A stretch of 64,000 bases of DNA, taken from NCBI GenBank assembly GCA_019058315.1, contig JAHPZH010000004.1, positions 384,001 to 448,000 on the forward strand. Reading direction: 5' to 3'. The position numbers and the translations under genes were made by a program. This document shows positions 11,417-30,200 of this stretch, in pieces; the first letter of the stretch is position 1, and every line of letters starts with the position of its first letter. The notes beneath the pieces were generated by a model that saw only the letters and a program-made list of their open reading frames with translations, made no database searches and had not been told where the DNA came from. The DNA comes from Candidatus Helarchaeota archaeon (GTDB lineage: Archaea > Asgardarchaeota > Lokiarchaeia > Helarchaeales > RDOG01).

Positions 11417-14400
11417 TTATACCCCCTGAACCTTAATTTTTTTACAATATTTGATTACAGCATTGACTCCATGATCATAAACAATTTGATCAGATTTTGA
11501 TAAAGGGTTGTTAGATAAATCCAATTTCTTTAAACTTGAAAGGTCTTCTAATCCACTAATATTTTTAATCTGATTTCCATAAACTATAAATTGCTGTAAA
11601 TGTTTTAGATGTCCTAAATTTTCAATAATTTTAATATCATTTTTTCCGAGATTCAATCTTTTTAATTTAAACAACTTATGCAGACCACTAATTTTTGAAA
11701 TTCTATTATTGTGTAAATTTAGCACTTCTAATTTGGTTAGATCATCAAGTTCCTCTATTTTGGAGATTTGATTTAGAGACAAATCTAAAACACGTAAATA
11801 TGAGAAGTTAGAAATTATTTTTGGAATTTTTTCAAGAAAAAGGTTATTTAAATTAAGTCTTACTACATGACCATCATAATCCATCTCATAATCATATGAT
11901 CCTATACGATATTTTGTGATTAATTCCTGAATTATCTCTCCATCTTTAATCTCTTCTATTTCAGGTTTTTCTCCAGGTTTTATTATCTGATTTATTATTT
12001 CAAATTGGTACTGAATTTGTTGTGTTTCTATCCTTCTTTCAAATGAAGCAAAAACACCATATTCGGAATCATTTAATAGATAATTAGCTAAGTTTTTCGC
12101 TTCAAAATCAATAATGTCGGACAAAGGCATTATTTGATGGTCATAGAAGAAAGGAAATGAAAATAATCTATTAAATAATCCATCCAATTTATCATTTTTC
12201 CCTCCCACTATATAAAATACTCTCTCATTCCATTCACTATTTTTCCAATTTATATCAGTTTCGTCGAATTTGCTAGCTCTAAACATTAATAATAAATAAA
12301 AACGAAGTGGAACTCTATAAGCATCCATAAAATCATATATAAGCTCTCTATTCTCTGGACTTTCTATAGGTTTAGATTTTCCCTCTCCATAAGAACGATA
12401 ATGGAGTATTCCTCTTCCTGGCCAATATTTTGAAAATCCAACTTTACCCAAAGCTTCACTAGCTCTTTTTTCTAGATTGAAAAATAAATAATTTAATGCC
12501 ACATTATACCTATCTAGTGCTCGAGCACCATAAAATATAGCTGTAGTGGCATGCCGTTGATATTGACGACTTGAAAATCTATCCTCTGGGGGTAGTGCTT
12601 TTTTAACACCATCCCATGCTTCATCATCGCAATTCGCTTCTATAGATCTTAATTTTCCTATAATCTCATCAAATTTTTTCTCATTATCACCTTGAGATTC
12701 CTTTAAAATTTTCTCTTTAATATAATAAGCTGTTATAGCATAATCTAACTGTCTTAATACAAGCAAATTGACCTTTTTTGGAAAAATTTTATGTTTTTTT
12801 AATTGTAGAGTATAAAAGATACTTGATTTAATCTTACTAATTACCATTTCCCAAGCTATTGGGAATAATTTTCCTTCTTCTCTCGCTTTTTGAATTGCTT
12901 GACGTAATTTATCAGCTTCAGCAGCTTTTTGTTTTTGTATTTCTATTTCATAATCAGAAAGTTTTTCAATTTCAATGTTTAATTTACTAATGAATTCTAG
13001 GTCTTCGTCGAAAATTTCTCCACCCGCAAGTCTTAATTTATACACTTCAAACGTATAATACGAACGACCATCAACTTTGATAATATGTAAATTAAATTGT
13101 TCCCCTCTTTCTAATGACAATTTCTTTCCTGGTCCAAGATGAATTAATTGCTTAGTACCGTAAATAGTAACCGAGTAAATTCCTCTATATTTACTTATTC
13201 TATCGGACCCGATGTTTGTTCCTTTATAGAACACAAATCCTCCTTTTTTATACCTAATTAGAACCTCACAGTTATTGCAAATATACATTTTATTCTTTGT
13301 AGGCATTCTTAGAGTCCCTGATTTACGACAATTGGGACATATGATTTTATCTTGTTCATCCTTGTTGAATTTATTAAAAGGATGATAATTTCGGGATTTA
13401 TATTTGAAATGAATACAAGCAGGTTCATTTTTTAACCGTCTCTTTTGTTTTTTTCGACAACAAGATTTGGGACCATCTTCCCTAACTTTTATGGAATTTG
13501 CGATAAAAAATTCACATTCTTGGCAAAAAATCCGTTCTTTCTCCTCAGGTTTCATTCCTGCTAAATAATAACGCTTAGACGGACGCCCCTTTATTATCAG
13601 GTCAAACGAAAATTCCAAATCTTTACTAATTTTGTCCAATTGATACCAAATAGCAGATTTCTTAATATTATTATATTTACGCTTTAATATATGATGTAAT
13701 TCTTTTATTGTCGCCCCTTTTTTTCCACTATTTCCCAATTCTTCTTTTATAGAATCCAGATATATCGAACTTCCATGTTTCTTCCTACGTGTGCGTTTAG
13801 AAACATGAAAATGAATTGTGTCTTTATCATCATTATATCGTTCAATTATATATCTAATCCGCCAAAATATTGGTTTATTTTCTTTTAAATTTAATATTTT
13901 CTTCTCGTCTATATCATGATAGTTTTTTCTCCCTAGGGCAATAGAATGAAATAATCTAGCAGCCTTAATAACATACGTTGAACAGAAAAACCATATTCCA
14001 GTTTTTCTACAAACTTCTACATCTCCCCCAAAATACTTATTTTTTTTAATAAATTTTTTATTTTTTAGTTTATTTTGAGAATATTTTTGGATTATTATTT
14101 TATATTTATTATTCTCTCGTTCAATATACTCTTGTGAAATTACACCCTTATATTGTGAAATTATTTCTTCCGCATGAGATTCACCAATTATTTCACCAAT
14201 TCTAAGTATGATCTCCTTACTCTTGGGTTTTTCATTTTGGTTAAAAAAGTCTAAAATTTGCATAAACGCTTTTCTATTTAGCTGAGTCTCTACAAGGCCC
14301 TCCCCTAGATAAGTTAGAGCATATTTTTTCTTAACATCCCGAATTAAATTCCTATTTTTTTTCATCAGTTCTTTATTCTTTACTGGAACTAGATCGGGCA

Positions 14401-15835
14401 TCAAGGATTTTAAAATCAGATCAAGGGGTTTTACATCGATACAGAAAGTTATTGATAATATGAAAGGCACTCGAAACATATATTCTACAAATTTATCGGG
14501 ATGCAAGACTTTCTCAAGATGCTCCATAATCTGAGCTTTTGAACGCTGACGTAAAAATAAATATTCAAGAATAATTTTTGGCAAATCTTTAATCGTTATT
14601 TGGCTATTTATTGCTTCTAGTGTATAACCCCGGAAAATTGTTTTATTTTTATCTAGAAATTTGACACTCTTTTTAAAGTCCTGATAATCTCTATAATACA
14701 TTAAATGAACTATTGTACCTAATAATTCTCTACATCTACCAATTATTTGTTCAAGCTCAATTTTTGAATATTTTTCAGGATCAGCTATAATTATTTCTTC
14801 AATATCCTTTACATCTACACCAGCTTCTAAAATGGGGCTACAACTCAAAATTTTGATTTTACCTGAATTAAAACTATCGAAAATTTGCTTTTTTTCATAA
14901 GTCGCAAGCCCTGCATGAATAAATCCGAAGATTTCAATATTATAACCTTTAAATTTTTCTTTGAGATGGTCTGAAATTTCCTGAGCTTTTTCTCTTGATT
15001 TGATAAAAATTAATAATTTAGCTTTTATTACTTCTCTATATTTTCTTAAGAAATTCCTGACTAATCCTGTAATTTCATCAAGTGGGGGATCACTTGCTTT
15101 TTGATGTAATTCAAATTTGAATTTGCGATTAGATGGATAGTAAAGTAATTCTGAACCAAATCTTTCCGACCAATATTCAGCAGATTCACGGTCAAATGTT
15201 CCAGTTAGAAAGCAAAAAAGAGGTCTGCTTTTCTTATTATCGAAATATTCAAATTTTAACTTATAAATCATGGTCTCTAATTTCATTCCCCTAGAAGGGT
15301 CTCTAATAGTATGGATTTCATCTACTATTATTGCTCCAAAAATGTCTTTTCTGTCAAACAACTCATATTTTTGAATTCGAAATAAAAAAGCTCGAAACGC
15401 TTCATAAGTACAAAGGAGAACTACTCGCCGATCTCTTTCTTTAGGTTTTTTCTTACTTTTACGGTCTTGTTGCCCTTTCTTCATTTTTGGTCTTAATTCT
15501 AATAGGTCTGGTCTTGATTCACCGACTAGTTTTAATATTTTAACCTTACTCCCAAAAAACCACCTTAACTCCTTTTCCTTTTGATATACCAACGTAGTAG
15601 TTGGTTCGAGTATAACACCTATTTTTCCTTCATCTGTTCCGACATAAAGGCCAATAAAAGCAACCCAAGTCTTTCCAGAATTTGTTGGGGCACAAAGAAA
15701 TATACTTATACCAGACAATAATTTATAAATCGCCAATTTTTGACTTTCAAATAAATCTGCAGTTGTAACACCATTTCTACGTGCGAATTGATCAAGTAGA
15801 TAAAGTAATTCGCTTCTATTTTTTAATAAAGCTAT
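11417..15835 (-). CDS. cas1: SF2 (Ski2/Hel308-like) helicase - wHTH - Zn finger - divergent Cas1 - LRR fusion (track start 15736; likely start near 15835)
   Basis: Helicase motifs APTNSGKT, DEIH, TGT, HAGL, LEAGVD, QIIGR; Cas1 motifs LRSIEA, FSSRQ, DRYNVALNYLF, GILH, LIYDFMDAYR; C-terminal LRRs. Confidence 0.8.
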   Translation of the reverse strand: MALLKNRSELLYLLDQFARRNGVTTADLFESQKLAIYKLLSGISIFLCAPTNSGKTWVAFIGLYVGTDEGKIGVILEPTTTLVYQKEKELRWFFGSKVKILKLVGESRPDLLELRPKMKKGQQDRKSKKKPKERDRRVVLLCTYEAFRAFLFRIQKYELFDRKDIFGAIIVDEIHTIRDPSRGMKLETMIYKLKFEYFDNKKSRPLFCFLTGTFDRESAEYWSERFGSELLYYPSNRKFKFELHQKASDPPLDEITGLVRNFLRKYREVIKAKLLIFIKSREKAQEISDHLKEKFKGYNIEIFGFIHAGLATYEKKQIFDSFNSGKIKILSCSPILEAGVDVKDIEEIIIADPEKYSKIELEQIIGRCRELLGTIVHLMYYRDYQDFKKSVKFLDKNKTIFRGYTLEAINSQITIKDLPKIILEYLFLRQRSKAQIMEHLEKVLHPDKFVEYMFRVPFILSITFCIDVKPLDLILKSLMPDLVPVKNKELMKKNRNLIRDVKKKYALTYLGEGLVETQLNRKAFMQILDFFNQNEKPKSKEIILRIGEIIGESHAEEIISQYKGVISQEYIERENNKYKIIIQKYSQNKLKNKKFIKKNKYFGGDVEVCRKTGIWFFCSTYVIKAARLFHSIALGRKNYHDIDEKKILNLKENKPIFWRIRYIIERYNDDKDTIHFHVSKRTRRKKHGSSIYLDSIKEELGNSGKKGATIKELHHILKRKYNNIKKSAIWYQLDKISKDLEFSFDLIIKGRPSKRYYLAGMKPEEKERIFCQECEFFIANSIKVREDGPKSCCRKKQKRRLKNEPACIHFKYKSRNYHPFNKFNKDEQDKIICPNCRKSGTLRMPTKNKMYICNNCEVLIRYKKGGFVFYKGTNIGSDRISKYRGIYSVTIYGTKQLIHLGPGKKLSLERGEQFNLHIIKVDGRSYYTFEVYKLRLAGGEIFDEDLEFISKLNIEIEKLSDYEIEIQKQKAAEADKLRQAIQKAREEGKLFPIAWEMVISKIKSSIFYTLQLKKHKIFPKKVNLLVLRQLDYAITAYYIKEKILKESQGDNEKKFDEIIGKLRSIEANCDDEAWDGVKKALPPEDRFSSRQYQRHATTAIFYGARALDRYNVALNYLFFNLEKRASEALGKVGFSKYWPGRGILHYRSYGEGKSKPIESPENRELIYDFMDAYRVPLRFYLLLMFRASKFDETDINWKNSEWNERVFYIVGGKNDKLDGLFNRLFSFPFFYDHQIMPLSDIIDFEAKNLANYLLNDSEYGVFASFERRIETQQIQYQFEIINQIIKPGEKPEIEEIKDGEIIQELITKYRIGSYDYEMDYDGHVVRLNLNNLFLEKIPKIISNFSYLRVLDLSLNQISKIEELDDLTKLEVLNLHNNRISKISGLHKLFKLKRLNLGKNDIKIIENLGHLKHLQQFIVYGNQIKNISGLEDLSSLKKLDLSNNPLSKSDQIVYDHGVNAVIKYCKKIKVQGV

Positions 15836-16199: not shown

Positions 16200-18590
16200 A
16201 TGAGAAATAACATTAAAAAAAAGCGCTTCTTAACAATATTTCTAGTTTTTATTATATTTTCCTTTATCATTTTTGAATTTTCACCAAAAAAATATTTTCA
16301 ATTCAATTCATTTAATGATAGGGGTCAAAAAAACCATTTTATTATACCTATAACAGATTTACAGGATTTTTTTGAGTTAGATACCAATTCATATATTTGG
16401 ACACAAACACAAGTTGTTTCCATTGAAAGCTCTGATAGTATACTTGATTTATCATTATTTATAGACGATTCTGACATTTTACATCTCGCTTGGAGTGATT
16501 ATACAGATTATCAAGGATCAGGAGAAGATGCGGATTATCTTTATAAAAGTTGTAATAGTACTTCAGGAATTTGGACACCAGCTGAGGTAATTTCCACAGA
16601 AAGTGCAAACCGTTCTCACTTTGGAAATATTGATGTAGATAAATTTGGTAATATAAATATTGCTTGGTGTGATATTACTGATTACGGGGGTGCAGGAATA
16701 GATTATGATATATTTTATAAATATAAAGACGCTAACACAGGTCTTTGGACTATTACTGAGGTTATTACCTCAGGGGCTGTTAATTCATCTGCCGATCCAG
16801 AAATTCGATCAGATAATTTTGGAAACTTGCATATGGTATGGTATGATTCTACAGACTATGGAGGAACTGGTTCAGATATTGATATCTTCTATAAATTTCG
16901 CAATCACACTACTGGTACGTGGTCTATAATTGAACTAGTTTCAACAAATACCACAGAAAATTCCATGTGGCCCGATATGACTTTAGATGAATTTGGAAAT
17001 GTTCATGTAGTTTGGGAAGAATGGAACAGTTCTGGACTTGAATATAATATTTTTTATAAAATGCGCAATTTTACAACAGGAAATTGGACAAAAATTGAGG
17101 AAGTTTCAACAGAAAGTTCTGATTTTTCCGAAGCTCCTGCTATATCAGTTGATTCTTCTGGTAATATACATGTTGTTTGGAGAGATAAAATGGATTATAT
17201 GGGTGCTGGTATAGATGAGGATATATTCTATAAGCAAAAGTATACAAACAATAATAGTTGGTCTGCTGCTGTATTAGTTTCTGATGGGTGTAATAAAGTT
17301 TCTAGTTCTCCTGAAATCTTTATGGGTAATGATGGAAAATTACATTTTGTATGGAGAGATGATACTGAATATAATGGAGCAGGAGGAGATTGTGATATCT
17401 TCTATAAATGTTTAGATTTAAATAATAATGAGTGGTCGACGAAAGAAGTGGTTTCCACTGAAAGTACTGCCAGCTCCTCATATCCAAAGCTCGCTGTAGA
17501 TGGTTTGGGAGTAATTCATGTAGTTTGGTTGGATGGCACGAATTATAATGGTTCAGGTGCGGATTCTGATGTCTTTTATAAGAAAAAAATTAAATTTACC
17601 CCACAAAATAATGAAGATCCAGATTATAGTCTCCCATTTTATACAACACCACCAACTTATAGATTTTGGCCTTATTTAATTTTAATGTTTATCGTTTTAT
17701 TGATCCCCTTACCTTTTATGATATATAAAAAATATTCTTCCAAATCCTCTCAACTGATTTTTGATAAAACATCACCTGAACAAAGAACATTATTTAGATC
17801 AAAATTAGATAGTTATCCATTATATAGAGAGGAATTACCATTTGAACAATTTGAAAAAACCTATGAAAAAGATAAAGTAAAGCATATAGATAGAAAATCA
17901 ATTGATTACTCAATAAAGGTTAAAAAAACTGAAACTAAAAAATCATTAGTTCCACGTTCGCCAAGGGTTTCACCACTAAGCTCGAAATTAAAGAGATATT
18001 CAATGTACAAAGAAGATGTTCCCTTTGAAAAATTAAAAAAAGCCTATTTAGAAAATAAAGCAAATGATCTTGACAAAAAATCTATTGAAGAATCAATAAC
18101 AGATAAAAAAATTAAAACCGAAAAACCATTAATTTCACATTCATTAGAAGAACAAAGCTCTCTTATTCTAGCCCTCAAGGATGAGAATATTTTTATACGT
18201 ATTAATGCTGCTAAAGAGCTCGGAAAATTTAATGATATAAAATCAAGTTACGTACTAATTAATGCCTTTAAAAACAACATTGAAAATAAAGAAGTTCAAA
18301 ATGCGGTGGAGTTATCTCTAATAAAAATTGGCGAAACAGCAGTAAAGCCATTACTTGATTTAATCAAAGGTTTGGAAATAAGCCTATTAACTAGCTCCTT
18401 TTTTAGAACAGATTTGTTATTTTTCGTTTTTAGAGTATTAAAAACAATTGCTACTAATAAAGTAGGGAAAAAAGCTGTAGACAAAATCCCGTTTAGAGAT
18501 GAACATCTTTATATTTCACGATTTCATCAATTAGCTCATAGAGCTAGATTATTTGCAGAAATAATAATTGGTAAATCAAAAAATTCGTGA
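16200..18590 (+). CDS. Single-pass receptor-like protein: extracellular beta-propeller repeats, TM helix, cytoplasmic HEAT repeat
   Basis: About 7 GNxHxVWxDxTDYxGxGxDxDIFYK repeats; TM FWPYLILMFIVLLIPLPF; ALKDENIFIRINAAKELG HEAT. Confidence 0.75.
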   Translation: MRNNIKKKRFLTIFLVFIIFSFIIFEFSPKKYFQFNSFNDRGQKNHFIIPITDLQDFFELDTNSYIWTQTQVVSIESSDSILDLSLFIDDSDILHLAWSDYTDYQGSGEDADYLYKSCNSTSGIWTPAEVISTESANRSHFGNIDVDKFGNINIAWCDITDYGGAGIDYDIFYKYKDANTGLWTITEVITSGAVNSSADPEIRSDNFGNLHMVWYDSTDYGGTGSDIDIFYKFRNHTTGTWSIIELVSTNTTENSMWPDMTLDEFGNVHVVWEEWNSSGLEYNIFYKMRNFTTGNWTKIEEVSTESSDFSEAPAISVDSSGNIHVVWRDKMDYMGAGIDEDIFYKQKYTNNNSWSAAVLVSDGCNKVSSSPEIFMGNDGKLHFVWRDDTEYNGAGGDCDIFYKCLDLNNNEWSTKEVVSTESTASSSYPKLAVDGLGVIHVVWLDGTNYNGSGADSDVFYKKKIKFTPQNNEDPDYSLPFYTTPPTYRFWPYLILMFIVLLIPLPFMIYKKYSSKSSQLIFDKTSPEQRTLFRSKLDSYPLYREELPFEQFEKTYEKDKVKHIDRKSIDYSIKVKKTETKKSLVPRSPRVSPLSSKLKRYSMYKEDVPFEKLKKAYLENKANDLDKKSIEESITDKKIKTEKPLISHSLEEQSSLILALKDENIFIRINAAKELGKFNDIKSSYVLINAFKNNIENKEVQNAVELSLIKIGETAVKPLLDLIKGLEISLLTSSFFRTDLLFFVFRVLKTIATNKVGKKAVDKIPFRDEHLYISRFHQLAHRARLFAEIIIGKSKNS

Positions 18591-18615: not shown

Positions 18616-18843
18616 TTCAAAAAAATGATGCCTTTTTCTAAACACTTTTCAAAAAATCGATATTATAAAAAATTGATCAAAAAGGAGTTTATTGATCAAA
18701 AAAAATTCTATGCAGTTTTCTAAACGCTTTTTAAAAAATTGTATTTTACTAGGTGATTTTTGATCAAAAAAATTTCTATGCAGTCTTCTAAACGATTTTC
18801 GAAAAATTGAACTTTTCAGGATCAAAAAAAATTTTCATTTTTA
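18616..18843. repeat. Imperfect ~50-bp tandem repeats
   Basis: TTGATCAAAAAAA(A/T)TTCTATGCAGT(T/C)TTCTAAACG..TTT..AAAAATTG at 18692-18741 and 18760-18809; degenerate copies at ~18616 and ~18820. Confidence 0.75.
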
Positions 18844-19685
18844 CTGAAATCAAAGAGATCCCTTAACTATAAGAATTGAGATAAATTATAAAAATTTGTA
18901 ATTAAATAACCTGATTTAAGTGGAAAATAGAATAAAAAAATTAGTTATTGAATAAGTATAAGTTTCTTAATTTCATTTACTAAATTTAAAATTTTTAATT
19001 TATTACAATGTTATGTTGTTTAACGCTGAAAAAAATGAGAGTTTCTACAAAAATATAGTTAAGTTAATCTTTGGATTTGAAAGAAGAATTTTAAAGAGTT
19101 ATAATTGAATCGCTATTAATTCTAAACATTAAATTGGAAAATATTTTTTAAATTTAAAGATGGAATAATGTTTTTCGATATTTATGTTCATAAGAAAGCT
19201 TCTTAATGATATTAAATTTAAAAACAATAAATAACTCTTAATTATTTTGTAAACTAAGTATATTTTTCTAATTTTATAATTTAAGCTAAAAAATTTTCAA
19301 ACTTCTAAATTCATTTAAATTAAATTTTAATTTTTATATTAGAAAGCTTATACAGCTAAAATTTTAATCAAAATTAAATAAACTCTTTTTAAATTAATTG
19401 GCTTATTAAATTTGTGATTGCTTAATAATAATTCAAATTAAAGTATATACCAGAATACTTAATTATAATTTAAGAAAATTTATATAAAATTTTCGTTTAA
19501 TTTGAATAAAGTCGATAATAATCAGCCTTGATATCCTCATTCGATGAAAAAATTTATTTAATAAATTTTTCTTTTTTTACTAAGAAATTTTTAAATTAAT
19601 GATAAAAACTTCTTTTTAATAAAATTTTAAAGATATTAAAATTGTTATCTTTTCTATTTTCTGCCCAAATTCCTACCCGAACCGT

Positions 19686-19731
19686 CTAAATAACCAGTTT
19701 TAGGGGTGTTTAAATATAGAATTAACAGTTA
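19686..19731 (+). promoter_or_regulatory. 46-bp repeat copy 1, overlapping the probable cas7 operon promoter
   Basis: CTAAATAACCAGTTTTAGGGGTGTTTAAATATAGAATTAACAGTTA; TATA-like TTTAAATA at 19709-19716. Confidence 0.7.
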
Positions 19732-19773
19732 TATAATAAATAAAAGTTTCAAAAAAAAAGAGGTTGAAAGAAT

Positions 19774-20619
19774 TTGAAAACAATAAATGTGGTTTTTTTA
19801 TGTGAATCAATAACAACAAGACAAGATCTCTTTGTCACCTTTGGAAATAGTCATGGAATCTTTGATCAAAAAAAGTTATCGGGGTATACTAAACTTGGTC
19901 GCATACCTGGTAAGACCTTGAAAGGTTGGTTAAGACATGGAATGGAAAAACTATTGTTGAAAATGGGAATATCTATTTGTCATCCTCTACCTGCAAATAC
20001 GATAACAAACGAGAGGAATAAAAAATATTATAAAGAAGATATGGCAATCGGTTACCATCCACGAGGAGAATGTGAAAAACAAGGCGGATGTCCGATATAT
20101 AATATGTTTGGGGATTTAGATAAACCAAGTAATTTAATTGTTCCCAGTGTTTATTTTTATCCTTCAGTTGGAGGCGGAACAATGGCAGCTAATATTAATA
20201 AAATTTTTGGATCTGTCGGAAGAGGAAGAATTGAAATTGACCATGAAAGTCCTAGAAAACGATCAAATAGTTTTCAAACATATATGAGCAACGAAACAAT
20301 TGTAGGAACTTATATTGAGGCACCTTGGAATCTTGTAATTCGAGAAGATAACGAACTTCATGAAATTTTAATTTTAAAAACTTTGGAATATCTCTTCGAA
20401 AAAAACACAAATTCCGATATGACATTTATGGTAGGCGGACAACGAACTGCTGGATGTGGAAGAGCTGTTGCGGTTAAATTAAATGATAGCGGAAATTATT
20501 TGATAAAAAATAGAAATTCCCTTGGTATAAAGCAAGAAAAAGTGGAGTTAATTAATGGAAAATTCGATGATTTCATGAAGGAGTTAAAAAAGAAATTTCC
20601 TATAAAGGCGGTAAAATAA
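19774..20619 (+). CDS. cas7: Cas7-like RAMP protein with Zn finger (HRAMP/ARAMP type)
   Basis: RIPGKTLKGWLRH, C..C..CPIYNMFG, Gly-rich loop VGGQRTAGCGR. Confidence 0.85.
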   Translation: MKTINVVFLCESITTRQDLFVTFGNSHGIFDQKKLSGYTKLGRIPGKTLKGWLRHGMEKLLLKMGISICHPLPANTITNERNKKYYKEDMAIGYHPRGECEKQGGCPIYNMFGDLDKPSNLIVPSVYFYPSVGGGTMAANINKIFGSVGRGRIEIDHESPRKRSNSFQTYMSNETIVGTYIEAPWNLVIREDNELHEILILKTLEYLFEKNTNSDMTFMVGGQRTAGCGRAVAVKLNDSGNYLIKNRNSLGIKQEKVELINGKFDDFMKELKKKFPIKAVK

Positions 20620-20620
20620 A

Positions 20621-21328
20621 TTGGAATACAAAGTTTTAAGATTGCTCTTTGGATTCTTAAGCGAATATGTGGGAAATCCGCTCTATATCTCTGGAAATGC
20701 AATTCGCCATGCTTTTCATAAAAAAATTAATACATCGGTTGGATGTTTTACAGAATTAAGACGATTGGATGCAATAAATAGCTATGAAGCTTTTATTAAA
20801 ATCAGAATAGAGAAGCCTTTTTTAATACCTCACACTCAATCTTTTTTTTCTAAGATTGAAAGGAAGAAAAAACATCTAATTTATTTCACACCTACTTCAA
20901 TAACCTTCGATATTATTAATCCTCCTGAGAATCTTATTAATTTTATTAAAAATTTGAATATAATTCAGTTGGGTGGTTTAAGAAATGAAGGTTTTGGAGC
21001 TGTTGAACTTCTTGATCATCTACTTATTGATTTAAAAAAAATTGAATATCCTGATATTGGGACACATGTAACTCTTATATCACCAATATTATATGTTCCA
21101 AAATTTCTTGAAACTTATCAGTGTCGTCAGGAATATGTAATTTTTTGGAATAATAGTAAAAAAAATCGGATAAAAATAATCTCACCTGGACAATTTTTCA
21201 GAATAAAAAAGAATAAAAACATAAAAAAAATTGCAGAAAAAGGGATCTTACGCAAGGTTTTATTTGGTCAGTTCGGGTTTGGTGAATTCTTTGTTAATAA
21301 TTGGCCAAAGGAGGAGGAAAATGAATAA
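20621..21328 (+). CDS. cas5: Cas5-like RAMP protein (HRAMP/ARAMP type)
   Basis: YVGNPLYISGNAIRHA, QLGGLRNEGFG and terminal GQFGFGEF Gly loops. Confidence 0.7.
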   Translation: MEYKVLRLLFGFLSEYVGNPLYISGNAIRHAFHKKINTSVGCFTELRRLDAINSYEAFIKIRIEKPFLIPHTQSFFSKIERKKKHLIYFTPTSITFDIINPPENLINFIKNLNIIQLGGLRNEGFGAVELLDHLLIDLKKIEYPDIGTHVTLISPILYVPKFLETYQCRQEYVIFWNNSKKNRIKIISPGQFFRIKKNKNIKKIAEKGILRKVLFGQFGFGEFFVNNWPKEEENE

Positions 21329-21998
21329 TATACTATCAATTCTACGACATGATCTTCATAAATTGAGGATAAAAGGATTTAAACCCCATAAAGAAGCCTT
21401 AGTTGAGCCTGAAATGAAAAAAGCAGATTCTATAGCCAGTTGGTTTTCAAGAAATGGCAATAAAATAGAGTTCGATATTAATAAAAGACTGTATTTGAGG
21501 GATTCTTATTTGATTAAAATTGAAAAAAATAAAATCAGAAATCAAATCATTAAAAAAAGAGAAGAAATTTTTAAAATTTTTAATGAAAAAAATCCTACAA
21601 AATTACATTCTCAGATTTTAAACTCAAAGGTTCTAAATAAATTTTCAGAGGCACGAATTTGCCCCCATAGTAGCTATAAATATCATTTGCTTTTAACTTG
21701 CAGTATTTATTGGAATTTGAAAAATAGTAATTGTTGGCAAAAATTATATTTAGCAGAAAATGCCGAAATTGATAGTCCGTTTCAGATTATCTACAAAGAT
21801 GATCAACGTGAATGGGCACTTACTCCTAACGGAGGAATGTCCCGCGTTTTCCCACAGTTTTCTAGAACTTGGTTGAGACGTCAAACATTTAGTTTAGGAG
21901 GTGATGATCTCATCCTCGATGGACTCCTATCCCAAATCGGGAGTTGGAGTGCTGCACTTGCAACAATCGAGGATTGGAGAGAGCTTCAAAAACCATAA
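21321..21998 (+). CDS. cas10: Miniature Cas10-like protein (225 aa)
   Basis: ATG 21321 after GAGGAGG; HDLHK, ADSIASWFSR, PHSSYKYHLLLT, LGGDDLIL motifs in Cas10 order. Confidence 0.65.
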   Translation: MNNILSILRHDLHKLRIKGFKPHKEALVEPEMKKADSIASWFSRNGNKIEFDINKRLYLRDSYLIKIEKNKIRNQIIKKREEIFKIFNEKNPTKLHSQILNSKVLNKFSEARICPHSSYKYHLLLTCSIYWNLKNSNCWQKLYLAENAEIDSPFQIIYKDDQREWALTPNGGMSRVFPQFSRTWLRRQTFSLGGDDLILDGLLSQIGSWSAALATIEDWRELQKP

Positions 21999-22051
21999 AT
22001 ATAGCAAGGGAAAAATTAGCTTGACTCGGTGCCTAACAATGCATAGTACCA

Positions 22052-22097
22052 CTAAATAACCAGTTTTCGGGGAATTTAACTATAAAATTAACAGTTA
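22052..22097 (+). repeat. 46-bp repeat copy 2
   Basis: 41/46 identical to 19686-19731; identical to 28361-28406. Confidence 0.85.
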
Positions 22098-22309
22098 ATC
22101 AAAGCTCTAAATAGAATAATCCTAAAAACAAAGTTACGTCTCGGTCTCAGCAGTGTAGACCGAAAAGAGGTAAAATCTGGAAATAGAAATTATCTCAATG
22201 TATAGTACAACTAAATATAAAGAACCATCTTTATGCATCATATCCAGAAGCGGATTCACTAAGTTTCTCAGTTCACTTTAATAACCTTAATAATTAATCT
22301 TTCATAATA
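22098..22309 (+). ncRNA. Candidate structured RNA downstream of the RAMP operon
   Basis: Hairpins TCGGTCT/AGACCGA, GAGGTAA/TTATCTC enclosing TCTG-GAAA-TAGA, TGTA/TACA, ATAAAGA/TCTTTAT, ATCC/GGAT; conserved in copy 28407-28619. Confidence 0.4.
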
Positions 22310-23399
22310 CTAATCATATTCCCTAACTAATTCAAAAGTTTGTTTTAAGAACTTAGAAGTTCCTTTTTTTTGCATTAAATCTAGAAGTGGGTTTATGGGA
22401 AGAAAAATTATTTGGTTTTTAATAAAATTATCAAGAATTTTTAAAAATTTTAAAGATCCTGAGACACTAGTTGCCAATGAGAGGATTGCTGAAAATTTAT
22501 TTAAATCTGTATATCTTATGCCTATTATCGTGTTTATCCACCACCCAAATTGCTCTGACAATTGATGTTTTGCGATTAAAAGGGCTTTTTCAACATTTCT
22601 TTCCCGTTCAAAAATATCAATTACTTGTTCTTTAGAGATAGTGTAGAATTTTTCTAATGAACCATTTTTTAAATCTAAACCTAAAATCGTTTGTAATTTT
22701 ATATCTTGATCGAAAATGAACATTATTGTCCTAACTTGATATCCATAAATGAAATTAAAAGCTCTATTATAACTTAGTATTGAAGGGGGATTTAATTTTT
22801 TTAAATCAAAATTAAAAAATGTTTTTCCCCAACGTCTAAATAACACAATTTTACCATCAGAAGTCCATAAATCATCTGATTTGGTAATAAATTCTGTAAA
22901 TTTGATAAGGAAATTTTTAAAATTATATTTAGACATTATATCTTTCAAATAATTAAATATTTCAAATCTTGTTATAAAAGCGGTATTTACTTTCAGATAT
23001 TTTTCATTATAGAATACCTGATATTTTTTATGAAATTGTTTAGCGAGTTCTGCCATAAGATCCTGCATTGAATGTTTCTTCTTTTTGATTTTTTCAAATC
23101 TATGCTCAATTTTTTTATTATCCAGAAATGTAAAAACCAACTTATAAGGTGTTGTAAGAATTACAAATGATGCTATTTTCTTTTCATTTATCAAGGAAAA
23201 AACAACATTTTGAGGAGGTAATAATTTCGTAATTACGTTTCTAAAGGTTAAGGCATCGAAATTATCATTATCTGTAATAAATTTTTTAAGAAAATCTAAA
23301 AATAAGGGAGGATTATAAACTTGAATTCTTTCTTCTTTATACATTTTAGCTAAAAAATTCCAAAGAGCTGCAATATAGTCTAAAAATTCATATTTTAAT
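22310..23399 (-). pseudogene. 5'-truncated duplicate of the gene at 28620-30200
   Basis: Homology starts abruptly at 23399 (equivalent to 29709); reading frame intact. Confidence 0.8.
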
Positions 23400-23438
23400 A
23401 ATTAGTCAAAAATAAATAGTTTTGCATCCTTTAAAATT

Positions 23439-27822: not shown

Positions 27823-27883
27823 CAATAATAAACTCTGCTTCTTAATCTTTTTTTTTTCGAAAAATATCTATTTAGTTATCAAT

Positions 27884-28307
27884 ACACTTTTTGAAAAATT
27901 GAACTTTACTTGTTTTAAAAAAATTTTCATTTTTACTAAAAACCTAGAATATAAAATAATAAGATAAATTTTTAATATTTTTAATTAAACAACTTATTGA
28001 CAGCTTTTTTCTAAAATAAAATAAACTCTTTCTAAATCGATTGGTTTATTTAATTTGTGATTGTTAAAGATTAATTTTATTTAGAAAATATATTTGATTT
28101 TTTACTTAAAATTTAAGATAGAATAATTATAGCTACAGTTAAGTTAAACAAAAGTCTGTAAAATTTATTAAGTTTATCTTTATATTTTTTTTTTACTCAG
28201 AATTTAGAACTTTTTAGTATTATTATTGGTGGGTCCTTTCTCAGATTGAGAGTTGGAGCGCTGTACTTGCAACGATCGAGGATTGGAGTGATCTTCAAGA
28301 AACTTAA
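27884..28307 (+). pseudogene. Relic of the RAMP locus: upstream intergenic pieces fused to the last ~24 codons of mini-cas10
   Basis: 27884-27940 resembles 18791-18848; ~28012-28070 resembles ~19370-19430; 28234-28307 resembles 21925-21998 (SWSAVLATIEDWSDLQET*). Confidence 0.75.
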
Positions 28308-28360
28308 ATATTGCATAGGAAAAATTTGCCTGACATAGTGCCTGACAATGCATAGTTCCA

Positions 28361-28619
28361 CTAAATAACCAGTTTTCGGGGAATTTAACTATAAAATTAA
28401 CAGTTAATCAAAGCTTTAGATTGCTAAATATCAGAAACAAAGGTCTGTCCCAGTCTCAGCAGTGTAGATCGAAAAGAGATAAAATCTAGAAATAGAAATT
28501 ATCTCAATGTATAGTACAACTAAAGAAAGAGAGCTATCTTTATGTATCATATCCAGCAGAGGATTTGCCAAGTTTATTCAGTTCATTCTCATACTCTTAA
28601 TAACTAATCTCTTATAATT
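28361..28619 (+). repeat. 46-bp repeat copy 3 plus second copy of the candidate ncRNA
   Basis: Colinear with 22052-22309 at offset 6309-6310. Confidence 0.85.
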
Positions 28620-30200
28620 CTAATCATATTCCCTAATTAATTCAAAAACTTCTTTAAAAAACTTAGAAGTTCCTTTTTTTTTCATTAAATCGAGAAGTGG
28701 ATTTATAGGAAGAAATATCATTTGATTTTTGATGAAATTATCAAGGATTTTTAAGAACTTCAGCGATCCTGGGACACTAGTTGCCAACGATAGGATCGCT
28801 GAAAATTTATTCAAATCTGTATATCTTACACCGATTACTGTGTTTATCCACAACCCAAATTGCTCCGACAATTGATGTTTAGCAATTACAAGAGCTTTTT
28901 TGACATCTTTTTCCCTTTTAAAAATATCTTTTACTTTTTCCATAGAGATTATATAGAATTTCTCTAATGTACCATTTTTTAAATCTAATCCTAAAATTGT
29001 TTGTAATTTTACATCTTGATCAAAAATAAACATTATTGTCCTAGCTCGATATCCATATATGAAATTAAAACCTCGATTATAACTTAATACTGAAGGAGGA
29101 TTTAATTTATTTAAATCAAAATCAAAAAAGGATTTTCCCCAACGCCTAAACAAAACAATTTTACCATCAGAAGTCCATAAATCATCTGATTTTATAATAA
29201 ATTCTGTAATTTTAATAAGGAAATTCTTAAAACTATATTTCAATATTATATCTTTCAAATAATTGAATATTTCAAATCTTATTACAAAAGCAGTATTTAC
29301 TTTCAGATATTTTTCATTATAGAATACACGATATTTTTTATGAAGTTGTTTAGCAAGTTCTGCCATGAGCTCCTGAAATAAATGTTTCTTATTTTTGATT
29401 TTTTTAAATCTCTGCTCAATTCTTTTATTATCTAAAAAGGTAAAAACGAACTTATAGGGTGTTGTTAGTATAGCAAATGCTGCTGTTTTCTTTTCATTTA
29501 TCAAGGAAAAAACAACATTTTGAGGAGGTAATAATTTCGTAATTACGTTTCTAAAGGTTAAGGCATCGAAATTATCATTATCTGTAATAAATTTTTTAAG
29601 AAAATCTAAAAATAAGGGAGGATTATAAACTTGAATTCTTTCTTCTTTATACATTTTAGCTAAAAAATTCCAAAGAGCTGCAATATAGTCTAAAAATTCA
29701 TATTTTAATGAATCATGTAATTCTCTAAAATCTTCAAGGAATTTTAAATCAATAACAATAATGAAATTGAGGTTAAAATTAGAATTGAGCCCGATATTTA
29801 AATTTTGAACGTAATTATTTATTTTTTCAAAGGAATTATCTTTAATTAATCCAAGTATTTCTTCAGAATTTTGAATTTCAAATTTGAAAAAGTCGAAATA
29901 ATTCCCATTCTCTTCGTATTGCGCAGCTGACCAAATTACTTGATTATGAGAATCATTTAAAATTAAAATTAAAGAATCCCCATTTTCCGTAAATAATTTT
30001 GGAAAAGATTCTGAAAAGAAATTAAAAAAAGTATAACAATCTACTTCAATAGGAATAAATGGAAAAGTAAGCTTTGTTTCTTGTTCTGATATTTTCTCTC
30101 CTATGGCGATTTTTTTATTAAATTTTATAATTTTTTTCCAATCTTCAACTAATTCTTCAAACCAACTTATAATCTCATGCAAAATATACTCATGCTCCAA
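28620..30200 (-). CDS. Hypothetical protein (full-length copy)
   Basis: 526-aa ORF coupled to the DUF362 gene. Confidence 0.7.
   Translation of the reverse strand: MEHEYILHEIISWFEELVEDWKKIIKFNKKIAIGEKISEQETKLTFPFIPIEVDCYTFFNFFSESFPKLFTENGDSLILILNDSHNQVIWSAAQYEENGNYFDFFKFEIQNSEEILGLIKDNSFEKINNYVQNLNIGLNSNFNLNFIIVIDLKFLEDFRELHDSLKYEFLDYIAALWNFLAKMYKEERIQVYNPPLFLDFLKKFITDNDNFDALTFRNVITKLLPPQNVVFSLINEKKTAAFAILTTPYKFVFTFLDNKRIEQRFKKIKNKKHLFQELMAELAKQLHKKYRVFYNEKYLKVNTAFVIRFEIFNYLKDIILKYSFKNFLIKITEFIIKSDDLWTSDGKIVLFRRWGKSFFDFDLNKLNPPSVLSYNRGFNFIYGYRARTIMFIFDQDVKLQTILGLDLKNGTLEKFYIISMEKVKDIFKREKDVKKALVIAKHQLSEQFGLWINTVIGVRYTDLNKFSAILSLATSVPGSLKFLKILDNFIKNQMIFLPINPLLDLMKKKGTSKFFKEVFELIREYD

Follow-up and report, generated by a model that had tools for sequence, protein, structure and literature searches.

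A putative crRNA-like guide matching the promoter of its own ARAMP operon in an Asgard archaeon

Why does a 46-bp element that overlaps the promoter of a three-gene operon encoding RAMP proteins recur directly downstream of that operon in a Candidatus Helarchaeota archaeon (assembly GCA_019058315.1, contig JAHPZH010000004.1, positions 384,001 to 448,000)? A previous reading of this 64,000-nt stretch, which as a whole we call the window, had offered two answers (the sequence-only reading): a promoter co-regulated with that of the operon, which would drive a downstream RNA, or a guide resembling a CRISPR RNA (crRNA), which would let the system repress itself. The operon belongs to ARAMP, an array-less derivative of the type III CRISPR systems, and the analysis described here leads us to consider it likely that the downstream copy is a crRNA-like guide directed against the operon's own promoter, as in the autorepression mediated by CreR. 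The element and a motif that flanks it are found at the following sites.

19686-19731, + strand: copy 1, the predicted target (protospacer), lying over the promoter of the RAMP operon, with an AACCAGT upstream motif, a purine-rich stretch resembling a transcription factor B recognition element (BRE) and the TATA octamer TTTAAATA.
19678-19682, + strand: CGAAC, an instance of the conserved SGAAY flank motif, 3 nt 5' of the target and a candidate for a function like that of a protospacer-adjacent motif (PAM).
22052-22097, + strand: copy 2, which would form the guide segment of a predicted crRNA-like RNA and follows a repeat (RepA, below) at constant spacing.
28361-28406, + strand: copy 3.

The three copies and their coordinates were reproduced as the sequence-only reading had given them, including the 41/46 identities between copies 1 and 2, the mismatches at positions 17, 22, 23, 29 and 34 and the end of identity at position 47; copy 3 has no differences from copy 2. 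The TATA octamer TTTAAATA of copy 1 lies at 19709-19716, 58 nt 5' of the TTG start codon (19774) of the first gene, with a GAGGT ribosome-binding site in between, and copy 2 contains TATAAAA at 22081-22087; both TATA sequences had been described correctly. For the 29-nt core of the element, 0 chance matches are expected in the window, and the 5.79-Mb assembly contains exactly three copies of the 46-bp element, all on the + strand (the reversed control gave none).

To place the element in homologous loci, the 450 nt 5' of the RAMP gene were compared with the 500 nt 3' of orf3, the last gene of the operon, in the window and in the eight loci with both flanks (L005, L006, L008, L016, L017, L018, L019 and L020), which form a subclade with RAMP proteins 40-70% identical. 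In 8/8 loci the best local match was a direct repeat of 39-49 nt, situated ~45-150 nt 5' of the RAMP start and 18-115 nt 3' of the orf3 stop, and its score was far over those of shuffled sequences in most loci. Homologous loci devoid of such a repeat were one part of what the sequence-only reading had named as grounds for abandoning its proposal; in this subclade the repeat is present throughout. With position 1 at the start of the element, which places a CCNG motif at 9-12, copies 1 and 2 of each locus differ as follows.

Window: on register at 17, 23 and 29; off register at 22 and 34.
L005: on register at 17, 23, 29 and 35; off register at 15, 19, 21, 32-34 and 39.
L008: on register at 17, 23 and 35; off register at 1.
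L016: on register at 5, 11, 17, 23, 29 and 35; off register at 1, 19, 20 and 32.
L017: on register at 5, 11, 23 and 35; off register at 31 and 34.
L018: on register at 29 and 35, with 1-nt indels at 5 and 17; off register at none.
L019: on register at 23 and 35, with 1-nt indels at 5 and 17; off register at 31.
L020: on register at 11, 23, 29 and 35, with 1-nt indels at 5 and 17; off register at 31.

The indel of L017 falls within a run of G and is compatible with a placement at position 23. All loci thus follow one register of six nucleotides: over seven loci the every-sixth positions differ in 28/42 cases (67%, approximately saturation) and the others in 17/238 (7%; Fisher p = 8e-17), and of the substitutions alone 25/35 fall on register (binomial p = 1e-12), p-values that are optimistic because the loci are related and their independence is overstated, although the variable register positions do differ by clade. 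In L006, where guide and target are a 48-nt pair of unrelated sequence, 6/6 mismatches lie on register (multiples of six apart). The 6-nt periodicity, which on five mismatches had been called only suggestive, has therefore become strong, with on-register differences in all nine loci. A coding origin of the periodicity was rejected, as none of the six frames of either copy is free of stop codons. That every sixth guide nucleotide is flipped out is a distinguishing feature of class 1 Cas7 filaments (PMC11127173).

Consistent with pairing at the remaining positions, masking of the sixth positions left 0/30 mismatches between guide and target of the same locus in L006, 1/30 in L008, 2/39 in the window (37/39 non-sixth positions match) and 4/30 in L016, compared with 7-12/30 at best for shuffled guides. 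Similarly, guide and promoter of one locus differ at 0-7/34 positions, whereas pairs made across clades differ at 11-20/34. Because own pairs match better than cross-clade pairs, copies 1 and 2 co-evolve and do not drift separately round a shared consensus.

What distinguishes copy 2 from copy 1 is its setting, a mini-array in which the guide and a variable part lie between two repeats.

22037-22058, + strand: RepA, the first repeat, with the core TGCAT at 22040-22044.
22196-22217, + strand: RepB, the second repeat, with the core TGTAT at 22199-22203.
22142-22162 and 22167-22196, + strand: two predicted hairpins ending at RepB (z = -2.0 for the whole unit).

RepA and RepB are identical at 20/22 positions, and in 16 loci two copies of a repeat of ~22 nt, with a consensus near ATTGCATGGTATCGATAATAAG, follow the orf3 stop codon 80-180 nt apart. 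These repeats are alike within a locus and different between loci, that is, they co-vary; L035, L036 and L039 apparently have one repeat only. Beyond the duplicate that contains copy 3 and a relic on contig 11 (see below), the mini-array repeat was found nowhere else in the genome. Copy 2 has its start 12 nt past the T of the RepA core, and the spacing between this core and the CCNG motif in copy 2 is constant in 11 loci (offset 21). When counted from the TGCAT core of RepA, the register of the unrelated L006 pair has the same phase as that of the other loci. We therefore read copy 2 as the probable guide because it is preceded by a repeat and copy 1 as the probable target because it is without one; a guide and its target are the best explanation because of the matching in five of every six positions, the phase set by the repeat and the adjoining Csm3-like and Csm4-like genes. 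On register, phase fixed to RepA and co-variation of guide and promoter, the autorepression guide proposed by the sequence-only reading has thus gained support.

The flank of the target is also conserved: SGAAY stands at the same offset (5-9) beside the target in 11 loci, including L006 with its unrelated target, and is absent beside the guide. We know of no PAM for ARAMP. Apart from copies 2 and 3, the only match of the guide in the genome is copy 1, and in eight further loci the guide likewise matches the promoter region of the RAMP operon. Scans of the genome with parts of the guide returned background alone for further targets; the best such match (contig 9, position 199742) is coding sequence and was rejected. 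These results bear on the idea that copies 1 and 2 are both targets of a third, unseen guide, since two protospacers of one guide would likewise agree except at every sixth base. However, no further copy exists in the genome on either strand with sixth positions masked and 10 mismatches allowed, the fixed distance after a repeat belongs to copy 2 alone and the SGAAY flank to copy 1 alone, and we regard a third guide as very improbable.

Several loci vary around this arrangement. In L012, L025 and L026 the cassettes are degraded, the first ~100 codons of the RAMP gene being fused to the C-terminal part of orf3, and the unit of RepA, guide and RepB is intact. A unit of RepA and promoter-like sequence lies 5' of the RAMP gene in L027 (~1860-2090, RepB included) and in L041 (~505-650); L027 has another promoter-like copy ~290 nt 5' of the RAMP start and L041 an additional unit downstream.

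We then considered whether the unit has the marks of an RNA. The sequencing runs listed as containing 19500-22400 were all DNA runs of sediment metagenomes, with no RNA run among them. In most clades the ~30 nt 5' of RepA and the ~30 nt 5' of RepB form a helix, the arms of which end 3 nt before the cores (L009, L012, L015, L016, L017, L018, L020, L023, L026, L037 and L041). The arms are wholly different between loci and their complementarity is kept: when arms were exchanged across loci, the own pair was the most stable of 11 in L009, L015, L016, L017, L018 and L026, and it came close to this rank in L019 and L037. The + strand helix mostly folds better than its - strand counterpart, and the + strand helices include G-U pairs. 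Because a co-varying helix precedes RepA and RepB, these observations argue for a + strand RNA that would begin 5' of RepA and so contain copy 2. The sequence of the two hairpins that end at RepB is kept in copy 3 and in the relic on contig 11, where the only changes are G-U/A-U and none is a double compensatory one; this supports the hairpins weakly. The 36 nt 3' of RepB gave no significant match in any locus.

Two further observations were made downstream of RepB. The segment 22225-22258 agrees at 25/34 positions with 22362-22395, 137 nt downstream in the 3' end of a convergent gene (22310-23344); this match covers offsets 27-60 from the RepB core, its every-sixth positions (29, 35, 41, 47, 53 and 59) are all mismatched, and the phase of the mismatches is that seen after RepA. 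The segment may be a second guide, antisense-compatible with the mRNA of the convergent gene, or a chance match; it is weaker in the duplicate and has no equivalent in the other loci. In addition, a long + strand transcript might be terminated at a T8 run on that strand (22364-22371), a possible archaeal signal of this kind that lies 147 nt after RepB and within the convergent gene's 3' end.

The helix and the register also bear on the other answer of the sequence-only reading, in which copies 1 and 2 are a duplicated promoter or operator bound by the same transcription factor and copy 2 drives a co-regulated small RNA comprising the hairpins and RepB. In most loci both copies do keep a motif of the AAGCCAGT type, a purine-rich BRE-like stretch and a TATA-like octamer; the contig-11 relic has TATA-like sequence before its hairpin-RepB part though it is without RepA and guide, and the clade of the window is without the helix that demands a transcript from upstream. 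However, if a protein bound the site, nothing would call for a strict 6-nt register of free positions, confine indels to it or let a repeat fix its phase. Moreover, L006 has the same register in another sequence that is without a CCAGT motif, position 29 of copy 2, which is an every-sixth position inside the TATA octamer, is C in 5/8 loci, the unit of L037 has no TATA, and the co-varying RNA helix encloses copy 2 in its loop in most clades. The promoter-like layout of copy 2 has been borne out, but the answer itself is weakened by these findings; the similarity of the copies can be explained without it, and we now hold it to be unlikely.

Recent duplication in the region raises a further alternative, that the copies are a neutral and functionless relic of duplication or gene conversion. 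Copies 2 and 3 lie within a duplication of 1476 bp (21925-23400 vs 28234-29709, 88% identical and 6.3 kb apart), which also contains the last ~74 nt of orf3 and one minus-strand gene. Thus, the identity of copy 3 with copy 2 noted by the sequence-only reading holds, but it is not an isolated match in diverged flanks as had been supposed. At its far end the duplication has a 224-bp identical block (23176-23399 = 29486-29709), the remainder being ~86% identical; without this block the longest identical run is 58 nt (22049-22106), right over the element, and the run 22180-22215 in the RepB area is among the next-longest. The duplicate is as follows.

28346-28526, + strand: second mini-array (RepA', the identical guide at 28361-28406 and RepB'), with no RAMP genes and preceded only by the last ~74 nt of orf3.

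For copies 1 and 2, recent duplication or gene conversion cannot account for the match because the every-sixth positions are approximately saturated, and the rest is 93% identical. The relic explanation is further contradicted by an arrangement that is kept across loci with 40-70% identical proteins, where the intergenic DNA is otherwise unalignable, and we give it almost no credence.

Between the two copies of the duplication lie genes for a membrane protein and for a lipase-like protein of 1040 aa. A third relic, on contig 11 (50083-50493; L004 6083-6509, minus strand), has an open frame of 87 aa with 66% identity to the orf3 C-terminus; the conserved hairpin-RepB part comes next, and RepA and guide are missing. 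AT-rich direct repeats of 68-82 nt (families D3, D8, D12 and D13) occur at 18620-18860, in the long intergenic region 5' of the operon, and at 27849-27948, where one related copy precedes the duplicate locus.

Because the reading of copy 2 as a guide draws on the neighboring genes, we next describe the cassette, whose annotated genes are these.

19774-20619, + strand: cas7-like RAMP gene, 281 aa (Pfam RAMPs, 5.7e-7), nearest to Csm3, the type III Cas7 (PADLOC, 1.2e-7).
20621-21328, + strand: second RAMP gene, 235 aa, Cas5/Csm4-like, with weak PADLOC matches to Cas5_IIId and Cmr3 (E ~0.015).
21321-21998, + strand: orf3, 225 aa, third and likewise conserved gene in the cassette (DUF8574 in the precomputed annotation of homologues; syntenic in all loci).
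11417-15736, - strand: gene for a fusion of helicase, Cas1 and leucine-rich repeats (LRR), 1439 aa (Pfam DEAD 6.6e-16, Helicase_C 2e-13, Cas_Cas1 2.9e-5 and LRR families; PADLOC Cas1 4.4e-8).

The AlphaFold2 model of the second RAMP protein has a predicted local distance difference test score (pLDDT) of 80, and Foldseek matched it to type III-D and type VII effector subunits, to a Csm3-Csm4 subcomplex and to Cas6 (E 1e-5 to 1e-3). In the orf3 family alignment an HDLHK near the N-terminus, H23, D36, H96 and H122 are invariant, which is suggestive of an HD-type metal site; the GGDD of the window orf3 is not conserved in the family, of which GG alone is invariant. For orf3 and its family no family or PDB match was obtained and no Cas10 model matched, and the AlphaFold2 model (pLDDT 44) was too poor for a structure search. 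Likewise, searches of PDB sequences with profiles of the three protein families gave nothing meaningful.

The cas7-like RAMP protein has 41 homologues, the named ones coming from metagenome-assembled genomes of Helarchaeota or Hodarchaeota. Homologous Asgard loci keep the three-gene order, often beside a Cas1 gene; Cas1 genes adjoin the operon in L005 and L006, where they are divergent, and also on the P0007 contig, and several homologous loci have no Cas1 nearby. Searches of genomes class- and phylum-wide added few cassettes (2/161 and 5/400 genomes). There is no CRISPR array in the window, and a crude scan found none in the 5.8-Mb assembly, although arrays can drop out of assemblies; the one array-like match of that scan is a 78-nt coding tandem repeat and thus not a CRISPR array. 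No Cas10 large subunit, which assignment to type III proper would call for, was detected. With its diverged Cas7 and Cas5, linked distinct Cas1, Asgard host and no array, the operon is an ARAMP cassette. ARAMP is known as an array-less type III derivative with an enigmatic mechanism, and the CRISPR classification lists both ARAMP and HRAMP as array-less derivatives (PMC8730458, PMC12669027). Between the Cas1 fusion and the RAMP operon, a gene of 796 aa (16200-18590) has internal repeats with a period of 174 nt and a weak match to a PDIAV-lipoprotein; it is absent from the homologous loci, where Cas1 adjoins the RAMP gene.

Taking copy 2 as the guide, we propose the following course of events. 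The Cas7-like protein, the Cas5-like protein and orf3 would form the ARAMP effector module, and the unit of RepA, guide, variable part and RepB would be transcribed on the + strand, either by read-through from the operon or from a start 5' of RepA. The transcript would be cut in or near RepA and loaded as a crRNA-like RNA on a Cas7 filament capped by Cas5. If its flipped bases are guide positions 6, 12 and 18 as in Cascade, then the guide would start at 22051 and carry an 8-nt handle at 22043-22050. The first ~46 nt of the guide (copy 2) would then pair with copy 1 on the template strand of the promoter that drives the operon, in segments of 5 nt separated by one flipped-out base, every sixth; the partner is predicted to be this DNA strand, and not an RNA, because the site lies 5' of where a transcript is expected and the guide RNA is + in sense. 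Since copy 1 takes in the upstream motif, BRE-like purines and TATA box, a complex bound there should prevent initiation: it would keep TATA-binding protein and transcription factor B off the promoter, and the cassette would repress itself in a loop of the CreR type. Finally, SGAAY, being beside copy 1 and not beside copy 2, would allow the complex to tell its target from the guide's own gene.

Besides the relatedness of the loci mentioned above, several points weigh against this proposal. Type III relatives bind RNA, and the target here would have to be DNA, for which we know of no precedent among them. If orf3 is a nuclease, near-complete complementarity to a DNA site of the cell itself would carry a risk. 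The long-range helix is absent from the window's own clade (the window, L005 and L008), where local hairpins ending at RepB stand in its place. Copy 2 retains a BRE/TATA-like layout, and the contig-11 relic is TATA-like at the same place; an internal promoter in copy 2 is possible. In other branches of ARAMP (L035, L036, L037, L040 and L041), no significant match between the upstream and downstream regions was found, and the circuit is thus not universal.

The evidence of the 6-nt register would also apply if the pairing were real and served another purpose, the guide marking the border of the cassette for the helicase-Cas1-LRR protein (in homing or integration, as do the homing guides of CRISPR-associated transposons) or acting as a self tag that holds the effector inactive. 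The linkage of the Cas1 fusion to the cassette, the repeat-insert-repeat form of the unit, which is that made by Cas1 integration, and the retention of the unit in the degraded cassettes of L012, L025 and L026 are consistent with such a role. However, the target is always over a promoter-like region 5' of the effector operon (with the upstream motif and, in most loci, a TATA) and not at an element end, no terminal repeats or target-site duplications were found around the cassette, and several loci are without a nearby Cas1. A homing or tagging function therefore seems to us improbable, and autorepression by a crRNA-like guide remains the reading we prefer.

How does this reading compare with known systems? 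CreR and other regulatory mini-arrays give rise to crRNA-like RNAs in types I-B, I-E, I-F1, I-D and V-A (bioRxiv 10.1101/2023.03.10.532045; 10.1101/2023.03.03.530964). As in CreR, two repeat-like sequences surround one spacer beside cas genes, the spacer matches the effector promoter, autorepression by the system's own effector is predicted, and a conserved motif flanks the target and not the guide gene. Unlike the repeats of CreR, which derive from the CRISPR repeat of the system itself, those described here have no parent CRISPR array and no canonical repeat as a source. In addition, the system is type III-derived, whereas the survey of mini-arrays saw no targets for those of type III, which it considered degraded; the complementarity extends over ~40-48 nt and is broken only at every sixth base, compared with a partial match of 10-20 nt in CreR; and the segment between the repeats is 60-155 nt long and partly structured. 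CreA of the haloarchaeal type I-B module CreTA is similarly an archaeal crRNA-like RNA with two degenerate repeats and a spacer that matches a BRE/TATA promoter, which it represses via the effector complex; CreA represses a toxin gene, whereas here the target is the effector operon and no toxin gene is evident. In the case of tracr-L (type II-A, Cas9 autorepression), a natural guide likewise sends the effector to its own promoter, but in a class 2 system with an 11-bp duplex and no Cas7 register.

The cassette shares with published ARAMP and HRAMP (PMC8730458; PMC12669027) the diverged Cas7 and Cas5, the distinct Cas1, the Asgard host and the missing CRISPR array, but whereas those were described as array-less, the cassette here bears a conserved unit of two repeats and a self-matching guide. 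Similarly, it resembles the type III crRNA-protein complexes (Csm/Cmr) in its Csm3-like backbone, Csm4-like cap and pairing broken at every sixth nucleotide, but differs from them in that no Cas10 was detected, there is no array of many guides but a single hard-wired one, and the target is apparently promoter DNA.

More speculatively, and with considerable doubt, ARAMP might be a hard-wired, single-guide, RNA-guided DNA binder of type III origin, in which a Cas7 filament is placed on double-stranded promoter DNA by means of SGAAY. The self-repression loop could then be a guard, such that disabling or titrating the complex would de-repress the cassette together with the linked helicase-Cas1-LRR or nuclease partners.

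Overall, a guide with a target that can be read from sequence gives ARAMP a testable mechanism, comprising guide, target, candidate flank motif and register, and the free positions at every sixth base are an in-silico footprint of a Cas7-bound guide that can be searched for elsewhere. If our reading is true, it would add a type III-derived lineage, for which a dedicated survey saw none, to the known cases of crRNA-like autoregulation (CreR, CreA and tracr-L), and would suggest that this lineage has switched its target from RNA to promoter DNA.

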